Below, one piece after another: positions 2,525-23,588 of a stretch of 24,000 nt of DNA (position 1 is the first letter of the stretch; the number at the start of each line of letters is the position of its first letter). Position numbers and translations under genes: made by a program. The notes beneath the pieces were generated by a model. The model worked only from the letters and a program-made list of their open reading frames with translations, had not been told where the DNA came from and ran no database searches. The stretch lies in assembly GCA_964353755.1 (NCBI GenBank), contig CAYGYC010000015.1:1-24000 (forward strand). The letters are read 5' to 3'. Source of the stretch: an uncultured archaeon. GTDB taxonomy: Archaea > Asgardarchaeota > Lokiarchaeia > Helarchaeales > HEL-GB-A.

Positions 2525-3277
2525 ATGGGTGAATTGCAAAAAAATCTTGAAACTAAATTAACAAATATCCAAGCGGCGATTACCACTCTCAAAGAGGAAA
2601 TACCTCGATCCATTGGACAAAATCTAATGTCCTTTTCGGATATGATCGGTGCTAAAATTGAGGATATGGAGGAATCTATTAAGAGGATTACCATTTCTTC
2701 TGGAGGAACTGCGGATCCTACTATTGGAACCGTAAAACAAGATTTAGGTGATATAAAAACAAGTATTAAAAATCTTCAAACGGCTATTCAAAGTATTAAA
2801 ATTGAGGCAGCTGCTACATCACCTCATATTACACTCGCTTCACCTATTTCAGCCCCAACTATACCAAAATCGTCTTCATTACCATCGCCGCCCCCAACCG
2901 CCCCTACTACTCCGCACCTCACTCCAATTCCAGTAAGTCCTTCTCAACCCGCTCCAGCTCCTGCACGCGTAAGTAGTGTCAAAACAACTCCTTCATCTTC
3001 TGCCCCAGCAGAAGGACCCGGATCAGATGTTACCAATTTATTAGATACGATTAAGCAAAAAGCAAAAAGTGGTCTCAGTGCCATTGCTTTGGCAAATGAA
3101 ATGGAACAGATACGCGACACCATAGTTAAGGTATATCGCTGGCACCCGGCTTTATATGAATTAGCAACCTTTGCCCGCCGATTGAAAAAATTCCCGGAAG
3201 GAGCCCCACCGGACGCCGAACTTTTTAACTTATTATTAGAGAAAGTTGAGGAATGGAAAAATCGAGTGAGCGGTTAA
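2525..3277 (+). CDS. hypothetical protein: N-terminal coiled-coil, Pro/Ser/Thr-rich linker, C-terminal helical domain
   Basis: 250-aa ORF with no competing ORF. The N-terminus is heptad-like (LETKLTNIQAAITTLKEEI..IKNLQTAIQSIKIE). A low-complexity linker follows (SLPSPPPTAPTTPHLTPIPVSPSQPAPAPA). The C-terminal segment is WHPALYELATFARRLKKFPEG. I recognise no family. Confidence 0.6.
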   Translation: MGELQKNLETKLTNIQAAITTLKEEIPRSIGQNLMSFSDMIGAKIEDMEESIKRITISSGGTADPTIGTVKQDLGDIKTSIKNLQTAIQSIKIEAAATSPHITLASPISAPTIPKSSSLPSPPPTAPTTPHLTPIPVSPSQPAPAPARVSSVKTTPSSSAPAEGPGSDVTNLLDTIKQKAKSGLSAIALANEMEQIRDTIVKVYRWHPALYELATFARRLKKFPEGAPPDAELFNLLLEKVEEWKNRVSG

Positions 3278-9533: not shown

Positions 9534-9941
9534 ATGAGTCTGCGTCCCGGTGGTGTAACTGGAATCGCCGTTCTCTTCTTAATCGCTGCAGCTATTTTTC
9601 TTGTACTCGGCGTTATTTGCGCCTTTGCAACAGCCACGGCAATGCTTTTCTGGTTTAATAATATTCACGGTCTCATTGCAGGATCGTTTATTGGTCCTTT
9701 CTATGTCGATCATCTCATGGACAATCTATTAAACCCTACTACCTGGGTCATTGCAGGGGTTATTTTCATCGGTATCGGCGCTGCTGACATTCTTACTTTC
9801 TTGGGATTGCTGAAATTAAAGAAATGGGGCTATTGGCTGTGCATTATTATCTCTATTCCGCTGATTATAGTGATCGTCGGCATAATCTTTATTTGGTACC
9901 TGCGTAAAGATGAAGTGAAAGCTGCTTTTGATATTAAATAA
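9534..9941 (+). CDS. small integral membrane protein (about 4 predicted TM helices), unknown function
   Basis: 135-aa ORF with four long hydrophobic stretches (IAVLFLIAAAIFLVLGVICAF, WVIAGVIFIGIGAADILTFLGLL, WLCIIISIPLIIVIVGIIFIW). It is GC-richer than its AT-rich flanks. Confidence 0.6.
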   Translation: MSLRPGGVTGIAVLFLIAAAIFLVLGVICAFATATAMLFWFNNIHGLIAGSFIGPFYVDHLMDNLLNPTTWVIAGVIFIGIGAADILTFLGLLKLKKWGYWLCIIISIPLIIVIVGIIFIWYLRKDEVKAAFDIK

Positions 9942-14276: not shown

Positions 14277-15326
14277 ATGGATCAATCCCAAGCTACCCTA
14301 CCATGCGATAAAGTTCGTGAGATTCTTATTAAATCTGAAGACACCACGAATCCGCAATTCGGTCTAAATCCAAATCAACGTCCTATCGAAGAACTTTTCA
14401 ATTATGGTATTGTTAATCTCAATAAACCTGCAGGTCCCACCTCCCATGAAATAACCGCTTGGGTAAAAAAAATATTACATATTGACAAAGCAGGGCATTC
14501 CGGCACCCTAGACCCCGGGGTAACGGGTATTTTACCAGTGGCGTTAGGTCGTGCTACCAAAATCCTGAATTCCCTTCTTACCGCAGGGAAAGAATATGTT
14601 TGCATCATGCATCTTCACAATTCTGCCACGAAAGACCAAGTTCTTACCACTATCAAAGAATTTATTGGACCCATCTACCAGAAGCCGCCTGTCCGCTCTT
14701 CGGTTAAACGCCAATTGCGAATTCGCCATATCTACTATCTAAACGTGCTAGAATACCTTGATAACGACATTTTATTCCAAGTCGGTTGCGAAGCGGGCAC
14801 GTATATCCGAAAACTGTGTTATGATATTGGGGAAGCCGTCGGGTCAGGCGCCCACATGCGAGAACTCCGCCGGACGCGGGTCGCGACTTTTCGCGAGGAT
14901 GAAACCCATGTCAGTCTCCATGATTTGCTCGATGCCTATACTTTCTGGCAAGAGCAAGGAGAACAGAAATATTTACGTAAATGTATTCAACCCATTGAAT
15001 TTGCCATGCGCCAATTCCCCAAAATTTATGTGCGCGATTCAGCCATCGATGCGATCTGCCATGGCGCTAGTTTAACAGCCCCTGGGATCCTGAAAGTGAG
15101 TACGGGCATTCAACCCAAGACGGAAGTCGCCATTCTCTCCTTGAAAGAGGAACTGATTGCTACGGGCGTGTCCCTCTCGACCAGTAACCAAATAATTGAA
15201 GCCGACCACGGGATTATTGTCCGCGTTGATGCCGTCCTCATGAAGCCCGATACCTATCCGCCGTGGTGGAGCTATAAAAAGAATCGCGAAAAAAAACCTG
15301 AACCCTCCGGCGCCAGCCATGACTGA
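14277..15326 (+). CDS. cbf5: H/ACA RNP pseudouridine synthase Cbf5 (TruB family, with PUA domain)
   Basis: Contains GIVNLNKPAGPTSHEITAWVKKIL and the catalytic-Asp motif HSGTLDPGVTGILPV. The C-terminal part is PUA-like (IYVRDSAIDAICHGASLTAPGI). The ORF is uninterrupted, so this cbf5 has no intron. Confidence 0.9.
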   Translation: MDQSQATLPCDKVREILIKSEDTTNPQFGLNPNQRPIEELFNYGIVNLNKPAGPTSHEITAWVKKILHIDKAGHSGTLDPGVTGILPVALGRATKILNSLLTAGKEYVCIMHLHNSATKDQVLTTIKEFIGPIYQKPPVRSSVKRQLRIRHIYYLNVLEYLDNDILFQVGCEAGTYIRKLCYDIGEAVGSGAHMRELRRTRVATFREDETHVSLHDLLDAYTFWQEQGEQKYLRKCIQPIEFAMRQFPKIYVRDSAIDAICHGASLTAPGILKVSTGIQPKTEVAILSLKEELIATGVSLSTSNQIIEADHGIIVRVDAVLMKPDTYPPWWSYKKNREKKPEPSGASHD

Positions 15327-16684: not shown

Positions 16685-16755
16685 CGTTGTAGAATTATTT
16701 ACCTAAATTCCCCACTCTAGCCTGCTTGGTTTGCTGGCTGCATTAGGTTGGGGGC

Positions 16756-17781
16756 TTATAATGCTCCAATAGAAAAATTATTTCTATCTATGATTTCAAT
16801 TTCTTTGAGGTTCGAATTGCAACTAGGACATTTTCCTTTAATTTTTACCCATTCCAGAAGATGTTCTCTATGTGCCATATTATGACATAGGGGGCATGTT
16901 CTTAGTTCTTCAAATTCATTGATTGATAAATGACATACACCACAAATACCCACAATTTTCTTACTATTGATATAAACAAAAGACTGCTCTGCTTGTTCAT
17001 GAGAGGAGTAAGAGGAATGGTCACCTTCAATTGGACTTTTCTCAAGTCCTGATTTGCAAGGTTCATCTAAAGAAAAGCATTGACAATTCCCACATAATTT
17101 TACATTTTTTAGTCCATTTTGCAAAATTGTTCTTTTCAGTTTCTTGTCAATTAAATAATAATCTGAATTTAAATATCCCAGCAAGGTAAATTCAATATCC
17201 TGAATGGTTCGTATTATACAATCCTTATGCCAAAGGCCATTAGAGAAAATATAAGTGGGAATAAAATAGAAAATCATACTATGCAGAATTTCACACGCAA
17301 CCCTGCGTACCTCAGGATTTCGATCTATTAGGCAATATATAATTCTGTGCATATATGAAGTTGCATCAAAATTTTCACCAAATTTAATTTTTTCCCACGA
17401 ATTCAAGATTTCTAATAAACTTTTTTTCCGTATTTTAGCCCGTGGGTCTCGTAATTTCACAAGAATCGGAGGGCCCTTCAAAAGGGGATCAACAAAACCT
17501 AAACAGACATAAAAAAGCCCATATTTTCGAATTTTTAAGAGTAAATAAATGTTTAAAGGAAAAAAAACTATCGTAAATCCCAGTGGAAATGGAAATAAAT
17601 ACCATCTTTGTTGAATTATATACATTATAATCGCCCATAGAAAATAACCAATTAATATTGAACAAATTATTTGATAAGAAACAAAAACTAAAACTGGATG
17701 TTGTACCTTATCCGCATTGCTAGTTATTTTTATCTCATTTCTTTTAATTCCATTAATAATTTGATAGGGCATGCTATTCAC
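16756..17781 (-). CDS. membrane-anchored protein with C-terminal RING-H2-like zinc finger
   Basis: 341-aa ORF. The N-terminus has ~3 hydrophobic helices (LVFVSYQIICSILIGYFLWAIIMYII, LFPFPLGFTIVFFPLNIYLLL). The middle has a HEAT-like segment (DRNPEVRRVACEILHSM). The C-terminus is CGVC-x12-CPLCH-x3-H-x2-H-LLEW-x6-CPSC. This follows RING cross-brace spacing, including the W and CPxC hallmarks. Confidence 0.55.
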   Translation of the reverse strand: MNSMPYQIINGIKRNEIKITSNADKVQHPVLVFVSYQIICSILIGYFLWAIIMYIIQQRWYLFPFPLGFTIVFFPLNIYLLLKIRKYGLFYVCLGFVDPLLKGPPILVKLRDPRAKIRKKSLLEILNSWEKIKFGENFDATSYMHRIIYCLIDRNPEVRRVACEILHSMIFYFIPTYIFSNGLWHKDCIIRTIQDIEFTLLGYLNSDYYLIDKKLKRTILQNGLKNVKLCGNCQCFSLDEPCKSGLEKSPIEGDHSSYSSHEQAEQSFVYINSKKIVGICGVCHLSINEFEELRTCPLCHNMAHREHLLEWVKIKGKCPSCNSNLKEIEIIDRNNFSIGAL

Positions 17782-17926
17782 TCTCGTTCACTAACAAAAT
17801 AGGAGTTGATTCAAAATAAACTCAGTCCATATGTTTCATATGTATTAAAATAAGCAAACCAAAAATAGAGAATTCGGTCCTTTTATTATGAATGAGCATT
17901 AATTACATTTGTATCCAATGATATGT

Positions 17927-18233
17927 TCATAGTTTTCCGCGCATCCAATTGACGATTTCGATAGCATCTTTCATCTCTTTAAAAGTCGGGTGATTAGTCC
18001 ATACACCTTTCGTTTCCTTCATAATTTTTTCCCAATCCATATCCAATTTTTCCGCGACAATTCTTCCATTCTCATATGAAATTTCCAATATATCACCTAC
18101 TGCAAGCTTCGTCTTTTTACGAATATCTTCTGGAATAGTAATTTGGTGCCTTCGGTCGACTTTCGTTTTTTTTCCCCAGTTTGAAAATTCGAAGCGATTT
18201 TTTCGTCGATACTTTTTCTTAAAAGGTCTTCAT
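17927..18233 (-). pseudogene. decayed AbrB/SpoVT-type (antitoxin-like) gene
   Basis: Not in the ORF track. The minus-strand frame reads TKVDRRHQITIPEDIRKKTKLAVGDILEISYENGRIVAEKLDMDWEKIMKETKGVWTNHPTFKEMKDAIEIVNWMRGKL-stop (stop at 17927-17929). It has no in-frame start codon. The only upstream ATG (18233-18231) gives MKTF-TAA, then needs a frameshift in an A8 run (18166-18173) to join. Confidence 0.5.
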
Positions 18234-18375
18234 AAATGTTTTTGCGGATTTTCCTCCTAGGAGAACCGTGAATTTACTATGTAACATTAAATTTACAAAT
18301 TCTCTAGGGTGCTGCGAGAGCATAACAGATTCTGAAACCATAATCCTTAAATATAGGATAGCCTCACTTATATCT

Positions 18376-18591
18376 ATGGCATTTACAGTAGATACAGCCT
18401 AGCTAGATTTACTTCCTAGAAAAGAAATTGTAGATTTTAAAGAAAGACCTACGTGTTCTGCTTGTGAAACGCCCATGATTATTTGTTCCCATAGTACTCC
18501 TTCAAAAGTGATTGGATTTGGAGGGATTTATTATACCGAGTATGTAGAATATACCTGCGGCGCCAGAGATTGCGTCTACTTTTTTTTATAA
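18376..18591 (+). pseudogene. zinc-ribbon ORF interrupted by an in-frame TAG, possible transposase N-terminal remnant
   Basis: My translation: MAFTVDTA-TAG-LDLLPRKEIVDFKERPTCSACETPMIICSHSTPSKVIGFGGIYYTEYVEYTCGARDCVYFFL. The CxxC..H..V.GF.G......Y.C....C..F spacing resembles zinc fingers at the N-termini of ISL3-type transposases. No transposase body follows. Confidence 0.3.
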
Positions 18592-18639
18592 ATTTACACG
18601 CTTTTGAATGAAAATTTTCGCCTAATTTATATATAATCG

Positions 18640-18679
18640 TTCATTAGTAATGAACACTAATTTTCATTAGTAATGAACA
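18640..18679 (+). promoter_or_regulatory. two copies of a 15-bp palindrome (TTCATTAgTAATGAA) next to a TATA-like box: candidate operator pair
   Basis: TTCATTAGTAATGAACA occurs at 18640-18656 and again at 18663-18679, a 23-bp offset. Each copy contains perfect 7-bp inverted arms. TTTAAATA at 18682-18689 lies ~24 nt upstream of the ATG at 18709, which suggests a leaderless or short-leader mRNA. Confidence 0.5.
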
Positions 18680-18708
18680 GATTTAAATAAATTAAATTTT
18701 GATAAAAT

Positions 18709-19926
18709 ATGATATTAAAAGAAACTTTGAGACAAGTAGTCAAATCTCAGAAATCAGAATTGCTTAGGTTTGAATACGGGGTAGAGAGAGAAAATTTAAA
18801 TGAAATAGACTTAAAACTTTCGTTTGCAATAGTGTTATCTGGGATTAGAAGGTGCGGCAAAAGCACTTTATTACACCAATTAATTAAAAAAACAACTAAT
18901 TATTGTTATTTTAATTTTGAAGATACAAGACTTATCAACTTTGAACCTGAAGATTTTGAGAAACTTAACGACATTTTTATGGAAGACAATCAAGAGTGTG
19001 AATACTATTTTTTTGATGAAATACAAAATGCCCCAAAATGGGAAATTTTTGTACGAGCTATGCTTGATAAGCAAAAAAAATTTATAATTACAGGCTCGAA
19101 TGCATCGCTACTTAGTAAAGAATTAGGGACACGCCTTACGGGTAGGCACTTGAGATACGAGCTTTTTCCATTTTCATTCAAAGAAATGTTGGTATTTACT
19201 AATAAGAAACCTTGCATAGAATCATTTGAGGAATATCTGAACAAAGGGGGCTTCCCCGATTATCTTAAATTTAATAAATCTGAAATACTTCAAGAATTAT
19301 TGAATGATATAATTGCACGAGATATTATTGTTAGACATCGGCTTAGAGAAGCAAAAACAGTAAAGGACATGGCATTGTATTTATTGACCAATGTTGGAAA
19401 AGAATTTTCCTATAATGGTTTAAAGACCCTTTTCAATTTAGGGTCAACTAATAGTGCACTATCTTTTGTTTCTTATTTTGAAGACAGCTATCTCTTATTT
19501 ACTATTCCAAAGTTTGATTATTCGCTTAAAAAGCAATTAGTCAATCCAAAAAAAGTTTATGCAATTGATAATGGCCTGTCGAATGTCAATTCAGCCTCAT
19601 TTTCTTTAGATAAAGGCAGAATGCTTGAAAATATTGTATTCTTGCATTTGAGAAGAAAATATAAGGAAATTTTTTACTTTAAAGAAAAAAATGAATGCGA
19701 TTTTCTACTGAAAGAAAAAAACCAGATAATATCTGCCATCCAAGTCTGTTATGAACTGCACGAAGATAATAAGAAGCGAGAAATTGATGGCATAATAGAA
19801 CCTATTACTAAATTTGACTTAAAAGATGGATTAATATTGACTTATAATCAAGAAGATGACTTTAATATCGCCGGCAAAAAAATACTTGTTAAACCTGTAT
19901 GGAAATGGTTGCAGGTTTCCCCTTAA
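18709..19926 (+). CDS. AAA+ ATPase of the COG1373 type (AAA_14 N-domain plus DUF4143-like C-domain)
   Basis: 405-aa ORF with Walker A (SGIRRCGKSTLL) and Walker B-like (YYFFDEIQ). The overall layout is typical of this widespread, often island-borne ATPase family. Confidence 0.8.
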   Translation: MILKETLRQVVKSQKSELLRFEYGVERENLNEIDLKLSFAIVLSGIRRCGKSTLLHQLIKKTTNYCYFNFEDTRLINFEPEDFEKLNDIFMEDNQECEYYFFDEIQNAPKWEIFVRAMLDKQKKFIITGSNASLLSKELGTRLTGRHLRYELFPFSFKEMLVFTNKKPCIESFEEYLNKGGFPDYLKFNKSEILQELLNDIIARDIIVRHRLREAKTVKDMALYLLTNVGKEFSYNGLKTLFNLGSTNSALSFVSYFEDSYLLFTIPKFDYSLKKQLVNPKKVYAIDNGLSNVNSASFSLDKGRMLENIVFLHLRRKYKEIFYFKEKNECDFLLKEKNQIISAIQVCYELHEDNKKREIDGIIEPITKFDLKDGLILTYNQEDDFNIAGKKILVKPVWKWLQVSP

Positions 19927-20038
19927 TCATTGTCTTATTTTACTAGATACCTGAATATAAAATTACAACAACTCGTATTAATCCAAACGAATTTTTAAAA
20001 AGAAATGAATGGGAAAAAGGAAAAACAATAAAAAATGT

Positions 20039-20252
20039 TACAGCGAAGCGACCTAACTGCGGAAATTCGGAGAACAACTCAATGACCATGGGGCGTAATG
20101 GCTTGAAGCGGACCATCCCACCTTCGCCCTGCTTGAGGAAATCGGGCTTCTCTTGAACGACCTGACCTGTTCGCGGATCTGTTTTACTGATGATTTCAGC
20201 GAATTGGCAGGCTACCTGTGCTGTATGCGCATGAATAATGGGGGAATAGCCG
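20039..20252 (-). pseudogene. EF-1alpha domain-III gene fragment (duplicate of 20739-20952)
   Basis: 20046-20252 matches 20746-20952 at an offset of exactly 700 bp, with one mismatch (20239 T vs 20939 C). In minus sense it encodes [71 protein letters not shown]. It has no start codon and no native C-terminus. Confidence 0.85.
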
Positions 20253-20274
20253 CTGGGGGCTCCCGAATGTCACG

Positions 20275-20628
20275 GTGATCTTCCGGGATGGTCCGAACTG
20301 GAGCATCCCGCTCCACTCGGCGGAGCCCCTTTGGATCGACATCACCAGTGACGAGCCGTATATGACGCTGGAGTTGAACTACACCATTGATGGGCAGTGG
20401 AGGGAGTTTACCATCGCTCCCCAAAGTACCCAACATTACTATTACGAGATCGAGTTTGATGTAGAGGGAGAGGTCACCTATCAGGTTAATATTGAATACA
20501 ATGGGGTCGTGGTGTGCGCGGATACGATCACCGTAGCAGGGGTGCCAGGTATTCCCTTCGGGACGTGGTGGCTTCTTGGGTGCTTAATATTAATAATAGG
20601 GTATAAAAAAAAAAGGAGATCTAAATAG
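20275..20628 (+). CDS. probable C-terminal fragment of a surface protein (beta-rich domain plus C-terminal anchor/sorting-signal-like tail)
   Basis: 117-aa ORF with a GTG start and no signal peptide. It begins 23 nt after the repeat edge. It ends VPGIPFG-TWWLLGCLILIIGY-KKKRRSK, which is a short motif, a hydrophobic helix and a basic tail. Confidence 0.4.
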   Translation: MIFRDGPNWSIPLHSAEPLWIDITSDEPYMTLELNYTIDGQWREFTIAPQSTQHYYYEIEFDVEGEVTYQVNIEYNGVVVCADTITVAGVPGIPFGTWWLLGCLILIIGYKKKRRSK

Positions 20629-20632
20629 AAAT

Positions 20633-20641
20633 AAAAAAAAA
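20633..20641 (-). terminator. T9 tract immediately downstream of the restored EF-1alpha stop
   Basis: An A9 run on the plus strand, so T9 in tuf sense. It lies 6 nt after the TAA at 20649-20647 that ends the spliced reading frame. Confidence 0.45.
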
Positions 20642-20646
20642 TTTGA

Positions 20647-22039
20647 TTATTCTTTCTTTTTCACTTCTTTCACGATGCCAACAGCCACCGTGCGGCCCAG
20701 TGCGAAGTACCCTAGGCAGTCTGGGATACTATATCGCGTACCGCAAAGCGACCTAACTGCGGAAATTCGGAGAACAACTCAATGACCATGGGGCGTAATG
20801 GCTTGAAGCGGACCATCCCACCTTCGCCCTGCTTGAGGAAATCGGGCTTCTCTTGAACGACCTGACCTGTTCGCGGATCTGTTTTACTGATGATTTCAGC
20901 GAATTGGCAGGCTACCTGTGCTGTATGCGCATGAATAACGGGGGAATAGCCGACGGCAATGGCGGTTGGGTGGTAGATGACAATGACTTGGCCAACGAAT
21001 TCGTCTACGACAGTCGGGGGATTATCCACCTTCCCGGCAACGTCGCCACGTTTGATATCTTTCACTGAAAGCCCTCGAAGGTTAAAGCCGATGTTATCAC
21101 CAGGCACTGCTTGTGGGATCTGCTCATGGTGCATATATTGTGATACGTACATCATGCACGAATCATCTCAATTGATCGGCATTCGCTCTGGACGCCGCCA
21201 GGCATGAAGATGAGTTTGTCGCCAACCTTCAGTATGCCGGTTTCGACACGACCGACGGGAACGGTGCCGACTCCAGTGATTTTGTAGACATCCTGGACTG
21301 GGATGCGGAGGGGTTTATCGGTGGGCTTGGGAGGGAGTTCAAAGGCATCTAGGGCCTCGATTAAGGTGGGACCCTTATACCAGGGCATTTTGTCGGATTT
21401 AGCCACCAAATTATCCCCTGTCCAGGCAGAGACAGGGACGAAATTGATTTTATCTGCGGGGTAGCCTACGATTTTCAAGAGGTCTTTCATTTCATTTTTG
21501 ACTTCATTGTAGCGCGCTTCTTTCCAGCTGTGGGTGTCCATTTTATTGATAGCCACGACGAGTTGGTTAATACCGAGGGTTCGGGAGAGGAAGGCGTGTT
21601 CACGGGTTTGGCCGCTGGCGGAGATACCACCTTCAAATTCTCCTTCTCGGGAGGAGACAACCAGGATGGCAGCATCAGCTTGTGAACTTCCGGTGATCAT
21701 GTTTTTGACGAAATCCCGATGACCCGGCGCATCGATCAGGGTGTAATAGTACCGTTTCGTATCGAAGCGGCGGAAAGCTAAGTCGATAGTAATTCCACGT
21801 TCTCGTTCTTCCTTGAGGCGGTCGAAGATGAAAGCAAATTTGAAAGAGGCATCTTTCATTTGCTTGGCGGTTTCTTCCATATCCCGCATTTCTCGTTCCG
21901 AGATACCACCCGTTTTAAAGAGGAGATGACCCATCATCGTGCTTTTACCATGATCGACGTGACCGATGATGATCAAGTTCAGATGCGGCTTCTTTTCTTC
22001 TTTGCCCGCTGTGGCTGCTGGCTTCTTTTCTTTGCTCAT
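20647..22039 (-). CDS. tuf: translation elongation factor EF-1alpha, split by two 32-nt BHB-type introns: join(22039..21167, 21134..20732, 20699..20647), 442 aa
   Basis: G1 motif [10 protein letters not shown]3 motif DAPGHRDF, G4 motif NKMD. The frame breaks at SIEM/HHE and at RFAVRD/MGRTVAVG. Removing 21166-21135 and 20731-20700 restores both motifs and the C-terminus [19 protein letters not shown]. Exon lengths are 873 + 403 + 53 nt, giving 443 codons. Confidence 0.85.
20700..20731 (-). other. candidate BHB intron 2 of tuf (32 nt)
   Basis: RNA sequence UAGUAUCCCAGACUGCCUAGGGUACUUCGCAC. The central 4-bp helix is GCGA (20737-20734) with UCGC (20705-20702). The bulges are UA|U and AC|U. The inner helix has 7 bp and the outer helix pairs at 6 of 7 positions. 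Confidence 0.65.
20746..20952. repeat. 207-bp direct repeat, copy inside functional tuf exon 2 (partner at 20046-20252)
   Basis: Read directly by comparing the two 60-nt-per-line blocks, which are offset by exactly 700 bp. There is a single mismatch. Confidence 0.9.
21135..21166 (-). other. candidate BHB intron 1 of tuf (32 nt)
   Basis: RNA sequence AUGAUUCGUGCAUGAUGUACGUAUCACAAUAU. The central 4-bp helix is AUUG (21172-21169) with CAAU (21140-21137). The bulges are AG|A and AU|A. The inner helix has 4+4 bp and the outer helix has 2 bp. Confidence 0.65.
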
Positions 22040-22388
22040 TTTTCAAATCCTCCATATTTTTGTTTGGATACTAACTAGATTTTAAAATAACACTCAATTT
22101 TTAATTTCTTCAATGGTTTTGGTCGGCTATTACGGCAGTTGCCAAATCGAACTTTTTGGGGTAATAACCGGAACCATCCAAGAGATTAGTTAAGTAGTAT
22201 TTAAAATCGTTTTTAGATTTTTTGGATAGGATTAAAACCTTATAGTTGAATCAAGAAAAAGCAATAGTGGTATATAAATTTTCTTTTATTGGGGGTTTTC
22301 ACATCCAAGGCAAGGAGTCTTTAAGGGAGTGAGTTTTAAAAGGAGAGGAAGGGGGAGAATAGGAAAGGAATTGAGGGGAGAAAGATTC

Positions 22389-23186: not shown

Positions 23187-23588
23187 ATGCAAATGTTAAA
23201 TAAGGGAAAAGTATATGATCGAATTCTGGCAAAAATGATTCAGAAGATGAGTTGCGGAAGCGTGATGCTACTAAATAATGATGGCTTAAAAATTTCAGAG
23301 CAAACATGTGGCTTCACCGATTCAGATGGCATTTGGGGTTCTGCCAACAGCTTATTATCGGCGGGAGAACGGGCGCTCTCCGAATTGTGTCAAAGTAAAA
23401 ATCAATTTATTAATCAAATTTTTGAATCCGAGACCTTTTTTCTCTCGGTAGGGCGAGTTAACGATGATATCAGCTATGCCATTCTCTCCTCCAAAGTGAA
23501 CAAAATTTCCATGGGCATGTTGCGGTTGATTGCGCAGAATCTGAAAGATCAAGTGAAAGTGGTTGATGGCGCTTCAGCATCTCCCTAA
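23187..23588 (+). CDS. Roadblock/LC7 (MglB-like) domain protein, tentative
   Basis: 133-aa ORF with the family layout. It has a beta strand (GSVMLLNNDGLKISEQ), a helix (WGSANSLLSAGERALSEL), then INQIFESETFFLSVGRVNDDISYAILSS and a final helix. This is pattern recognition only. Confidence 0.45.
   Translation: MQMLNKGKVYDRILAKMIQKMSCGSVMLLNNDGLKISEQTCGFTDSDGIWGSANSLLSAGERALSELCQSKNQFINQIFESETFFLSVGRVNDDISYAILSSKVNKISMGMLRLIAQNLKDQVKVVDGASASP

Follow-up and report, generated by a model that had tools for sequence, protein, structure and literature searches.

Why should the elongation factor 1α of an archaeon (aEF-1α) be laid down in two open reading frames (ORFs), neither of which reaches the conserved C-terminus of the protein? 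The question is posed by a 24,000-nt stretch of DNA, the window analysed here (contig CAYGYC010000015.1 of assembly GCA_964353755.1, positions 1 to 24,000), whose minus strand carries, from 22039→20647, the aEF-1α gene of a Helarchaeota/Promethearchaeota-like Asgard archaeon. The two ORFs, both on this strand, encode 295 aa (22039..21152) and 147 aa (21155..20712). As pointed out in a first-pass annotation and directly readable in the sequence, the second ORF ends at 20712 with the TAG at 20714-20712, the remaining C-terminal residues of EF-1α continue beyond 20712 in a different frame as far as a stop at 20649-20647, and a run of nine Ts (T9, 20641-20633), an archaeal-type terminator signal, follows.

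The answer that we consider highly probable, judging from the sequence, is that the 32 nt at 20731..20700 are a genuine endonuclease-type, that is tRNA-type, bulge-helix-bulge (BHB) intron of the pre-mRNA, the second of two in an aEF-1α gene that stands in a single-copy context. The case for this intron 2 is carried by its geometry, by the restoration of the reading frame, by its precise absence from a near-identical relative, by purifying selection on the gene and by parallel introns in related lineages. Its cleavage and ligation we infer from the established biochemistry of BHB processing and from the published (αβ)2 form of the splicing endonuclease EndA in Asgard archaea.

Reading frame and orthologues

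Removal of both 32-nt segments, 20731..20700 and 21166..21135, leaves an ORF of 1329 nt that codes for 442 aa. Exon 1 (21167..22039; 291 codons, from Met1 to ...SIE) is delimited by its ORF, by the Pfam domains GTP_EFTU and D2 and by alignment to orthologues. Exon 2 (20732..21134), obtained by splicing in silico and alignment, extends from MHHEQ to RFAVRD and includes the first base of the ensuing Met codon. Exon 3 (20647..20699), recognized by alignment, completes the Pfam family GTP-eEF1A_C, of which the spliced protein covers positions 2-101 of 101 and the unspliced fragment positions 2-93; for EFTU_D3, coverage is 2-105 of 106 with splicing and 2-92 of 106 without. The segment removed as intron 2 contains the very UAG (20714-20712) that creates the apparent stop, as had been proposed.

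The top database matches are EF-1α proteins of Promethearchaeota/Helarchaeota, 432-437 aa long, 77-84% identical and all called as intact genes. In an alignment of 16 sequences the spliced product runs without a gap across both junctions against 15 orthologues, which, together with the complete Pfam match (101/101), substantiates the claim that excision of 20731..20700 recovers the conserved C-terminal block. A comparison of orthologue C-termini, suggested at the outset, gave the same picture, with the invariant block RFAVRD|MGRT matching the spliced product. Invariant in all 16 sequences are IEM|HHE at the first junction and R420, F421, A422, R424, D425, M426, G427, T429, A431 and G433 around the second, and eight close matches outside this alignment also have normal C-termini. 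In a whole-protein scan of a genome collection, matches to the universal HRDFVKNM motif predominated, and the only relatives recovered were 60-68% identical.

The most telling comparison came from the 90% identity cluster of the 147-aa fragment, which includes a 442-aa protein from an independent sequencing run, on a contig of 5.8 kb (Logan SRR29366204, hereafter L081). Its synteny is the same, S7-EF-1α-AAA_14/DUF4143 ATPase, and its EF-1α gene is uninterrupted, with 442 aa and 98.6% amino acid identity to our spliced product. At the nucleotide level, L081 is devoid of exactly the two 32-nt segments. Site 2 is uninterrupted also in four other relatives (L088, L090, L082 and L094). Over the 1329 spliced positions, L081 and the window differ at 39 nucleotides, 31 of which lie in synonymous codons and 8 in non-synonymous ones; the EF-1α gene is therefore under purifying selection and not decaying.

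Geometry and proposed processing of the probable introns

Intron 2 (TAGTATCCCAGACTGCCTAGGGTACTTCGCAC; minus strand, 20731..20700) has the architecture termed hBHBh', in which two 3-nt bulges on opposite strands are separated by a 4-bp helix and framed by an outer and an inner helix. The outer helix, found by motif scan and folding, is formed by GCGGUAC of exon 2 (20738..20744) and GGGCCGC of exon 3 (20692..20698), paired at 6 of 7 positions. In the central helix, GCGA of exon 2 (20734..20737) and UCGC of the intron (20702..20705) are complementary at all four positions, with pair probabilities of 0.975-0.99. The inner hairpin (20706..20730) comprises AGUAUCC (20730-20724), an 11-nt loop (20723-20713) and GGGUACU (20712-20706), which form 7 bp including one G-U. 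Between these helices lie the 5' bulge UA|U (20731..20733), unpaired in the minimum free energy (MFE) structure, and, in the canonical register, the 3' bulge AC|U (20699..20701). As BHB cleavage is stated for cbf5 to occur between bulge residues 2 and 3 (PMC2738675), the predicted cuts are 20732|20731 and 20700|20699. They join the exons as RFAVRD-M-GRTVAVG, so that the positions given by the cleavage rule are also the frame-restoring coordinates. On recomputation, every helix, bulge and loop of intron 2 came out at the coordinates and with the pairings originally reported. Unconstrained MFE folding of 86 nt of context recovers the central helix, the 5' bulge and the inner helix, and the exon-exon stem lengthens outward to ~17 bp (with 20750-20745 and beyond). 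The two ends of the intron share a 1-nt repeat only (T).

How would such an element be processed? Pairing of exon 2 with exon 3 would create the outer stem of the transcript, the four exon bases GCGA would pair with the four intron bases UCGC, and the hairpin of the intron would supply the inner stem, which leaves a 3-nt bulge on each strand with 4 bp between them. EndA would then cut after the second base of each bulge, and a ligase of the RtcB type would join the exons, regenerating a Met codon (A+UG) and the conserved C-terminus and setting free the intron of 32 nt, probably in circular form. In an unspliced transcript, translation would end at the UAG of the intron. Such a route would be in keeping with the biology of the group: Asgard archaea possess an (αβ)2 EndA with an L1 loop, the broad-specificity type that has been tied to crenarchaeal pre-mRNA splicing (PMC5829648), and in some Asgard genomes introns occur in 92-95% of the tRNA genes (PMC11291895).

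The companion, intron 1 (21135..21166, minus strand), was detected by motif scan and is a relaxed BHB element, which would need a broad-specificity endonuclease. Its central helix is AUUG/CAAU, flanked by the bulges AG|A and AU|A. The outer helix, with 3 of 7 positions paired, is weak, and folding does not robustly give this structure as the one of lowest free energy. The first-pass description of this insert as a frame-restoring segment of 32 nt that obeys the cleavage rule stands, with one correction. The bulge rule fits only 21166..21135, 3 nt upstream of 21163..21132, which restores the same frame and the same product owing to an ATG repeat.

Chance expectation and the exon flanks

To what extent could such a structure arise by chance? 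We scanned for motifs with a central helix of 4/4, an inner helix of at least 6, an outer helix of at least 6/7 and a length of 14-60, using dinucleotide shuffles as control. At the stringency of intron 2, both strands of the 24 kb contain 3 motifs, versus 2.0+/-1.1 per shuffle. The motif alone is thus not significant, since shuffles yield about two per window; only its position is unusual. As estimated from the shuffles (~2 per 2.3 million coordinate pairs), a BHB on a given pair of coordinates is expected at a frequency of ~1e-6, and for intron 2 only one pair of coordinates restores the frame, or two given the T/T ambiguity. A further BHB-like motif of the same stringency lies on the plus strand at 22288-22330, with an inner helix of 10-11 bp including G-U and an outer helix of 6/7. 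It is located in the spacer between S7 and EF-1α, antisense to both genes, and is probably a chance occurrence, as the shuffles give about two such motifs per window.

The exon flanks called for a control of their own. Among the 39 nucleotides that set the window apart from L081, nine, without exception synonymous, fall within +/-20 nt of junction 2 and in helix-forming bases: the codons read TTT GCG GTA CGC / GGC CGC ACG in the window versus TTC GCT GTA AGG / GGG AGA ACA in L081. We considered compensatory evolution of the exon flanks as an explanation and withdrew it, given that intron-less relatives have a similar exon-exon complementarity. Their outer-helix scores at site 2 are 6/7 (L088), 5/7 (L082), 4/7 (L090) and 3/7 (L081), the last being the outlier. 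The A-V-R-D/M-G-R codons themselves largely supply the outer helix, and the synonymous cluster at junction 2 is consequently not evidence of compensatory evolution. It reflects a different ancestry of the two 3' ends rather than selection for pairing.

P-loop inserts in related lineages

Parallel cases are found in other Asgard lineages. Three EF-1α calls of 409 aa (P0019-21) start at MMGHL and lack the P-loop, though they lie inside long contigs, and in the DNA of these lineages the P-loop codons GH[VI]D|HGKST are split by an insert. In L082-85 and L093 it is 30 nt long, contains an in-frame TAA and is identical across five assemblies (JGI, ENA, Logan); in L091 and L092, whose coding sequence is 78% identical to that of the L082 lineage at the nucleotide level, it measures 32 nt. 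The 30-nt form, present in L086 as well, occupies positions 3956-3985 in L082; the 32-nt form lies at 1538-1569 in L091. The corresponding site at ~590 of L094, 92% identical to L082 in nucleotides, is precisely empty.

In unconstrained MFE folding, the L082 context adopts a textbook hBHBh' structure (5+4 bp, 3-nt bulge, 10 bp, 3-nt bulge), and the L091 context folds as a relaxed version of it. The two inserts are homologous. Between them, a U:A pair of the inner helix has changed to C:G in a compensatory manner and a G-U pair of the central helix to A-U, and two pairs of the L082 insert are lost in L091. A GCCAU/AUGGC exon-exon helix is present in both carriers and absent from five intron-less alleles. 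The BHB rule fits all four inserts, i.e. intron 1, intron 2 and those of L082 and L091, and additional copies of the four intron sequences were not detected in the DNA searched. The EF-1α genes of this clade hence carry structure-defined inserts at three sites, each sporadically distributed.

Other short EF-1α calls turned out to be of a different nature. Two from other lineages, likewise on long contigs (P0174 and P0215), were rejected as introns, being 1-nt frameshifts of long-read assemblies. On long 'contig_N' records of other archaeal lineages (L095 ~2402, L096 1-3181), short EF-1α (and EF-2) calls are 1-nt frameshifts of this type, in contrast to the structured inserts of 30-32 nt.

A rearranged 3' end

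The 3' end of the gene adjoins a direct repeat of the EF-1α 3' coding region, 214-230 nt long, 99% identical and spaced by 700 nt, which the first-pass annotation, silent also on the codon-inherent nature of the outer helix, had not noticed. Copy A (20739..20968), within the gene and spanning codons ~347-423, stops 8 nt short of the 5' splice site of intron 2. Copy B (20039..20268) is a displaced EF-1α fragment without the last 67 nt of the gene. Between the gene and copy B lies segment X of ~393 nt (20253..20646), without counterpart in L081 or anywhere searched; all three are on the minus strand. The order of the locus is A-R-C'-X-R-D in the window versus A-R-C-D in L081, where C' denotes the intron-bearing C-terminal segment. 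A single base distinguishes the two R copies, and each has all five of the lineage-specific differences from L081, which indicates a recent duplication. Copy B has an L081-like tail (TTC GCT GTA A), after which it passes directly into D at a TAA microhomology, omitting the terminal 67 nt of the gene. As the identity shared at the junctions X|R and R|D amounts to 3 nt at most, k-mer mis-joins do not account for them. Identity to L081 is 99.2% in D and 96% in the gene region. Segment X harbors, on its plus strand, a truncated ORF (20275..20628) with a membrane-anchor-like tail; this ORF has no protein homologues, the segment matches neither any locus nor other parts of the window in nucleotide and tblastx comparisons, and no viral or mobile-element contig with an EF-1α 3' fragment was found.

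Segment D belongs to a low-GC island at ~16700-20040 (0.30-0.32, versus 0.40-0.50 around it) between S10 and EF-1α. The island encodes a RING-finger-like protein of 341 aa (16756-17781, minus strand) and an AAA_14/DUF4143 ATPase (18709-19926, plus strand). It is common to L081 (99.2%) and absent from L082 and L093, where S10 directly follows EF-1α. Arg424 and Arg428 are encoded by AGG and AGA in L081; the EF-1α gene of the window uses CGN in 24 of 24 cases, and the island genes prefer AGR. With the small numbers at hand, codon usage hints that it may be the 3' end of L081, not that of the window, which derives from the island. The arrangement fits an import of the intron-bearing 3' end together with X. 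It also fits a native intron-bearing end and an island-borne, intron-less end in L081, in which case an ancestor resembling the window could have given rise to the arrangement of L081 through recombination of one R copy with the other, and the intron would have been lost by that route.

Alternative explanations

Several observations weigh against an intron. In the MFE structure the outer helix slides and the 3' bulge becomes 5 nt instead of 3 nt; the fully canonical register lies 0.6 kcal/mol higher (-33.7 versus -34.3), and its closing pair has an ensemble probability of 0.345. The exon codons provide a ready-made site for the outer helix, and the edge of a duplicated and rearranged stretch of ~700 nt is only 8 nt away from intron 2. 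Introns 1 and 2 occur in one assembly only, with no insertion at either site in the other relatives sampled. A clade-specific metagenome scan with fragment search yielded no further carriers at sites 1 or 2. Exact look-ups of window fragments and of the spliced product, covering further contigs and transcript-derived assemblies, retrieved L081 only, and the exact spliced protein is absent from a collection of 15 billion proteins. The 24-kb window does not contain the genes for EndA and RtcB, and a second, intact EF-1α copy may exist elsewhere in the genome.

This last point leads to the alternative that survives best, although we regard it as improbable: a disabled allele or pseudogene, in which both 32-nt inserts would be unspliced lesions of a dispensable copy and the BHB-like folds incidental, for instance because an intact copy exists elsewhere in the genome or, in a polyploid cell, on a different chromosome copy. 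The restriction of the inserts to a single assembly would accord with it, as would the rearranged 3' end with a duplicated gene fragment nearby. A dispensable copy, however, would hardly be expected to keep the conserved position next to S7, a ratio of 31:8 synonymous to non-synonymous changes and three exons free of other defects, the third with its frame, stop and terminator retained. Nor would lesions be expected to be equal in length and to follow the bulge cleavage rule, both of them, at frame-restoring coordinates, and in relatives the P-loop of a gene that is conserved in other respects has kept a comparable insert despite 22% nucleotide divergence. The original judgement that two equally long, rule-obeying inserts make chance or simple pseudogenization unlikely holds.

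Very improbable, in our view, is an artefact of assembly or amplification, whereby the 32-nt insert, the A-R-C'-X-R-D order or both would stem from a strain chimera or from library preparation. The contig is derived from a metagenome, no independent assembly of the allele exists, the 214-nt near-exact repeat is adjacent and the flanks diverge unequally from L081 (96% versus 99.2%). Yet the brevity of the identity shared at X|R and R|D speaks against mis-joining, and a canonical BHB that recruits exon bases and at the same time restores the frame exactly is not what an artefact would be expected to produce. Moreover, five assemblies (JGI, ENA, Logan) contain the analogous P-loop intron in identical form, and true sequencing-error splits in long-read contigs are 1-nt frameshifts.

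We give hardly any credence to translational recoding, by which the ribosome would bypass the 32 nt or shift to the -1 frame that is open across the insert: matching AUG codons do flank intron 1 as possible take-off and landing sites, the frame of exon 3 continues open across intron 2 and both inserts contain a hairpin, but intron 2 offers no take-off/landing pair (GAU/AUA and CUG/GGC mismatch, with a single shared T), no stop codon behind the putative take-off position and, within 20750-20715, no slippery heptamer, a -1 shift would swap the invariant Met426 for ~11 residues inside the RDMGRT block, no single rule suits both the in-frame, TAA-containing P-loop insert of L082 and its 32-nt homologue in L091, and all four inserts obey the BHB rule.

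Possible intron turnover and its implications

Given a BHB intron at 20731..20700, the rearrangement and the P-loop cases can be accommodated in a common scenario, which we put forward tentatively and consider rather unlikely as a whole. In it, mini BHB introns would be gained, lost and moved in the protein-coding genes of this clade, EF-1α with its three sites would be a hotspot, and its expression would be coupled to EndA and RtcB. Turnover would proceed through DNA recombination that carries the exon flanks along, and the order A-R-C'-X-R-D would be a snapshot either of the import of an intron-bearing 3' end or of a precursor of intron loss as in L081. Were this true, the output of EF-1α would be tied to the activity of EndA and RtcB, as both introns would need the tRNA-splicing machinery, and the lineage closest to the eukaryotes would possess an archaeal counterpart of splicing of the HAC1/XBP1 type.

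Independently of this scenario, if the introns are spliced, mRNA splicing by the tRNA machinery would extend to the archaeal group closest to the eukaryotes and to a highly expressed, essential gene, and there would be a protein-coding gene with two such introns. The presence/absence polymorphism between strains that are 98.6% identical would then represent recent turnover, well suited to studying the origin of introns. There are practical consequences, too. Gene callers split or truncate such genes, into 295 and 147 aa here and to 409 aa without P-loop in the relatives, with repercussions for annotation, for estimates of completeness and for phylogenies in which EF-1α serves as a marker.

Genomic neighborhood

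Judged by the profile coverage of its neighbors, EF-1α is the sole interrupted gene in the window. Its upstream neighbor encodes ribosomal protein S7, and the remainder of the window is a large ribosomal-protein/SecY/Adk/Cbf5/S10 cluster, in which Pfam coverage is complete for every ribosomal-protein gene as well as for SecY, Cbf5, the kinase, the methyltransferase and S10. The only Rfam match in the window is a tRNA-Ser, which has no intron. The cbf5 gene (14277-15326, plus strand) is uninterrupted, likewise in L082 and L093. The gene for L30 (10082-10606, minus strand) is inverted inside an otherwise plus-strand ribosomal-protein operon. Between S17 and L14 lies an ORF of 250 aa (2525-3277, plus strand) that belongs to no credible family, and two further plus-strand ORFs (9534-9941 and 23187-23588) have no Pfam match.

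Comparison with known systems

To our knowledge, experimental confirmation of a BHB intron in an archaeal protein-coding gene exists for cbf5 alone, and this in Crenarchaeota. The intron in the pre-mRNA of this gene, the aCBF5/dyskerin homologue, was reportedly described by Watanabe in 2002 and Yoshinari in 2006. Archaeal tRNA genes are said, with reference to Marck and Grosjean in 2003, to contain BHB introns that include multi-intron cases and non-canonical positions.

A search of the open-access literature in PMC and bioRxiv yielded no report of BHB introns in the mRNAs of Asgard archaea or in EF-1α, and no earlier report of more than one such intron per protein-coding gene; endonuclease papers up to 2025 cite cbf5 as the sole case. 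The introns described here would accordingly be of a known kind, with crenarchaeal cbf5 as precedent, while the host gene, the phylum, the occurrence of two introns per gene and the strain-level polymorphism appear to be new. Like the cbf5 intron, they are short, reside in an ORF and use a BHB that is often relaxed and partly made of exon bases; a cut between bulge residues 2 and 3, here predicted, a sporadic distribution among close relatives through gain and loss and a link, here presumed, to the hetero-oligomeric (αβ)2 endonuclease are further shared traits (Yokobori 2009, PMC2738675). Unlike it, they are found in aEF-1α, in the Asgard phylum, and as two introns in one gene with a third site in relatives; the cbf5 intron, moreover, has been confirmed by cDNA, whereas those of EF-1α are known here from DNA alone. 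With the BHB introns of archaeal tRNAs and rRNAs they have in common the hBHBh' structure, a length of tens of nucleotides, presumed processing by EndA and RtcB and the occurrence of several per gene (PMC5829648, PMC11291895). In contrast to tRNA introns, the substrate would be an mRNA, codons restrict which exon bases can pair, and a splicing error would cut short an essential protein.

Two systems outside the realm of BHB splicing bear comparison. T4 gene 60, with its 50-nt gap, and the byps of Magnusiomyces mitochondria (27-55 nt) likewise feature hairpin inserts that are absent from orthologues and from the protein, but these elements need matched take-off and landing codons at the ribosome, which intron 2 lacks, fitting the BHB rule instead. 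The splicing of HAC1 and XBP1 mRNAs is similarly independent of the spliceosome, acts on a short, structure-defined intron (26 nt in XBP1), changes frame and C-terminus and concludes with ligation by a tRNA ligase, RtcB in metazoa, comparable to the RtcB-type ligation proposed here. It differs from the EF-1α case in that HAC1 and XBP1 are cut by IRE1 at twin stem-loops, in a regulated and stress-induced manner, where the Asgard transcript would present a BHB.

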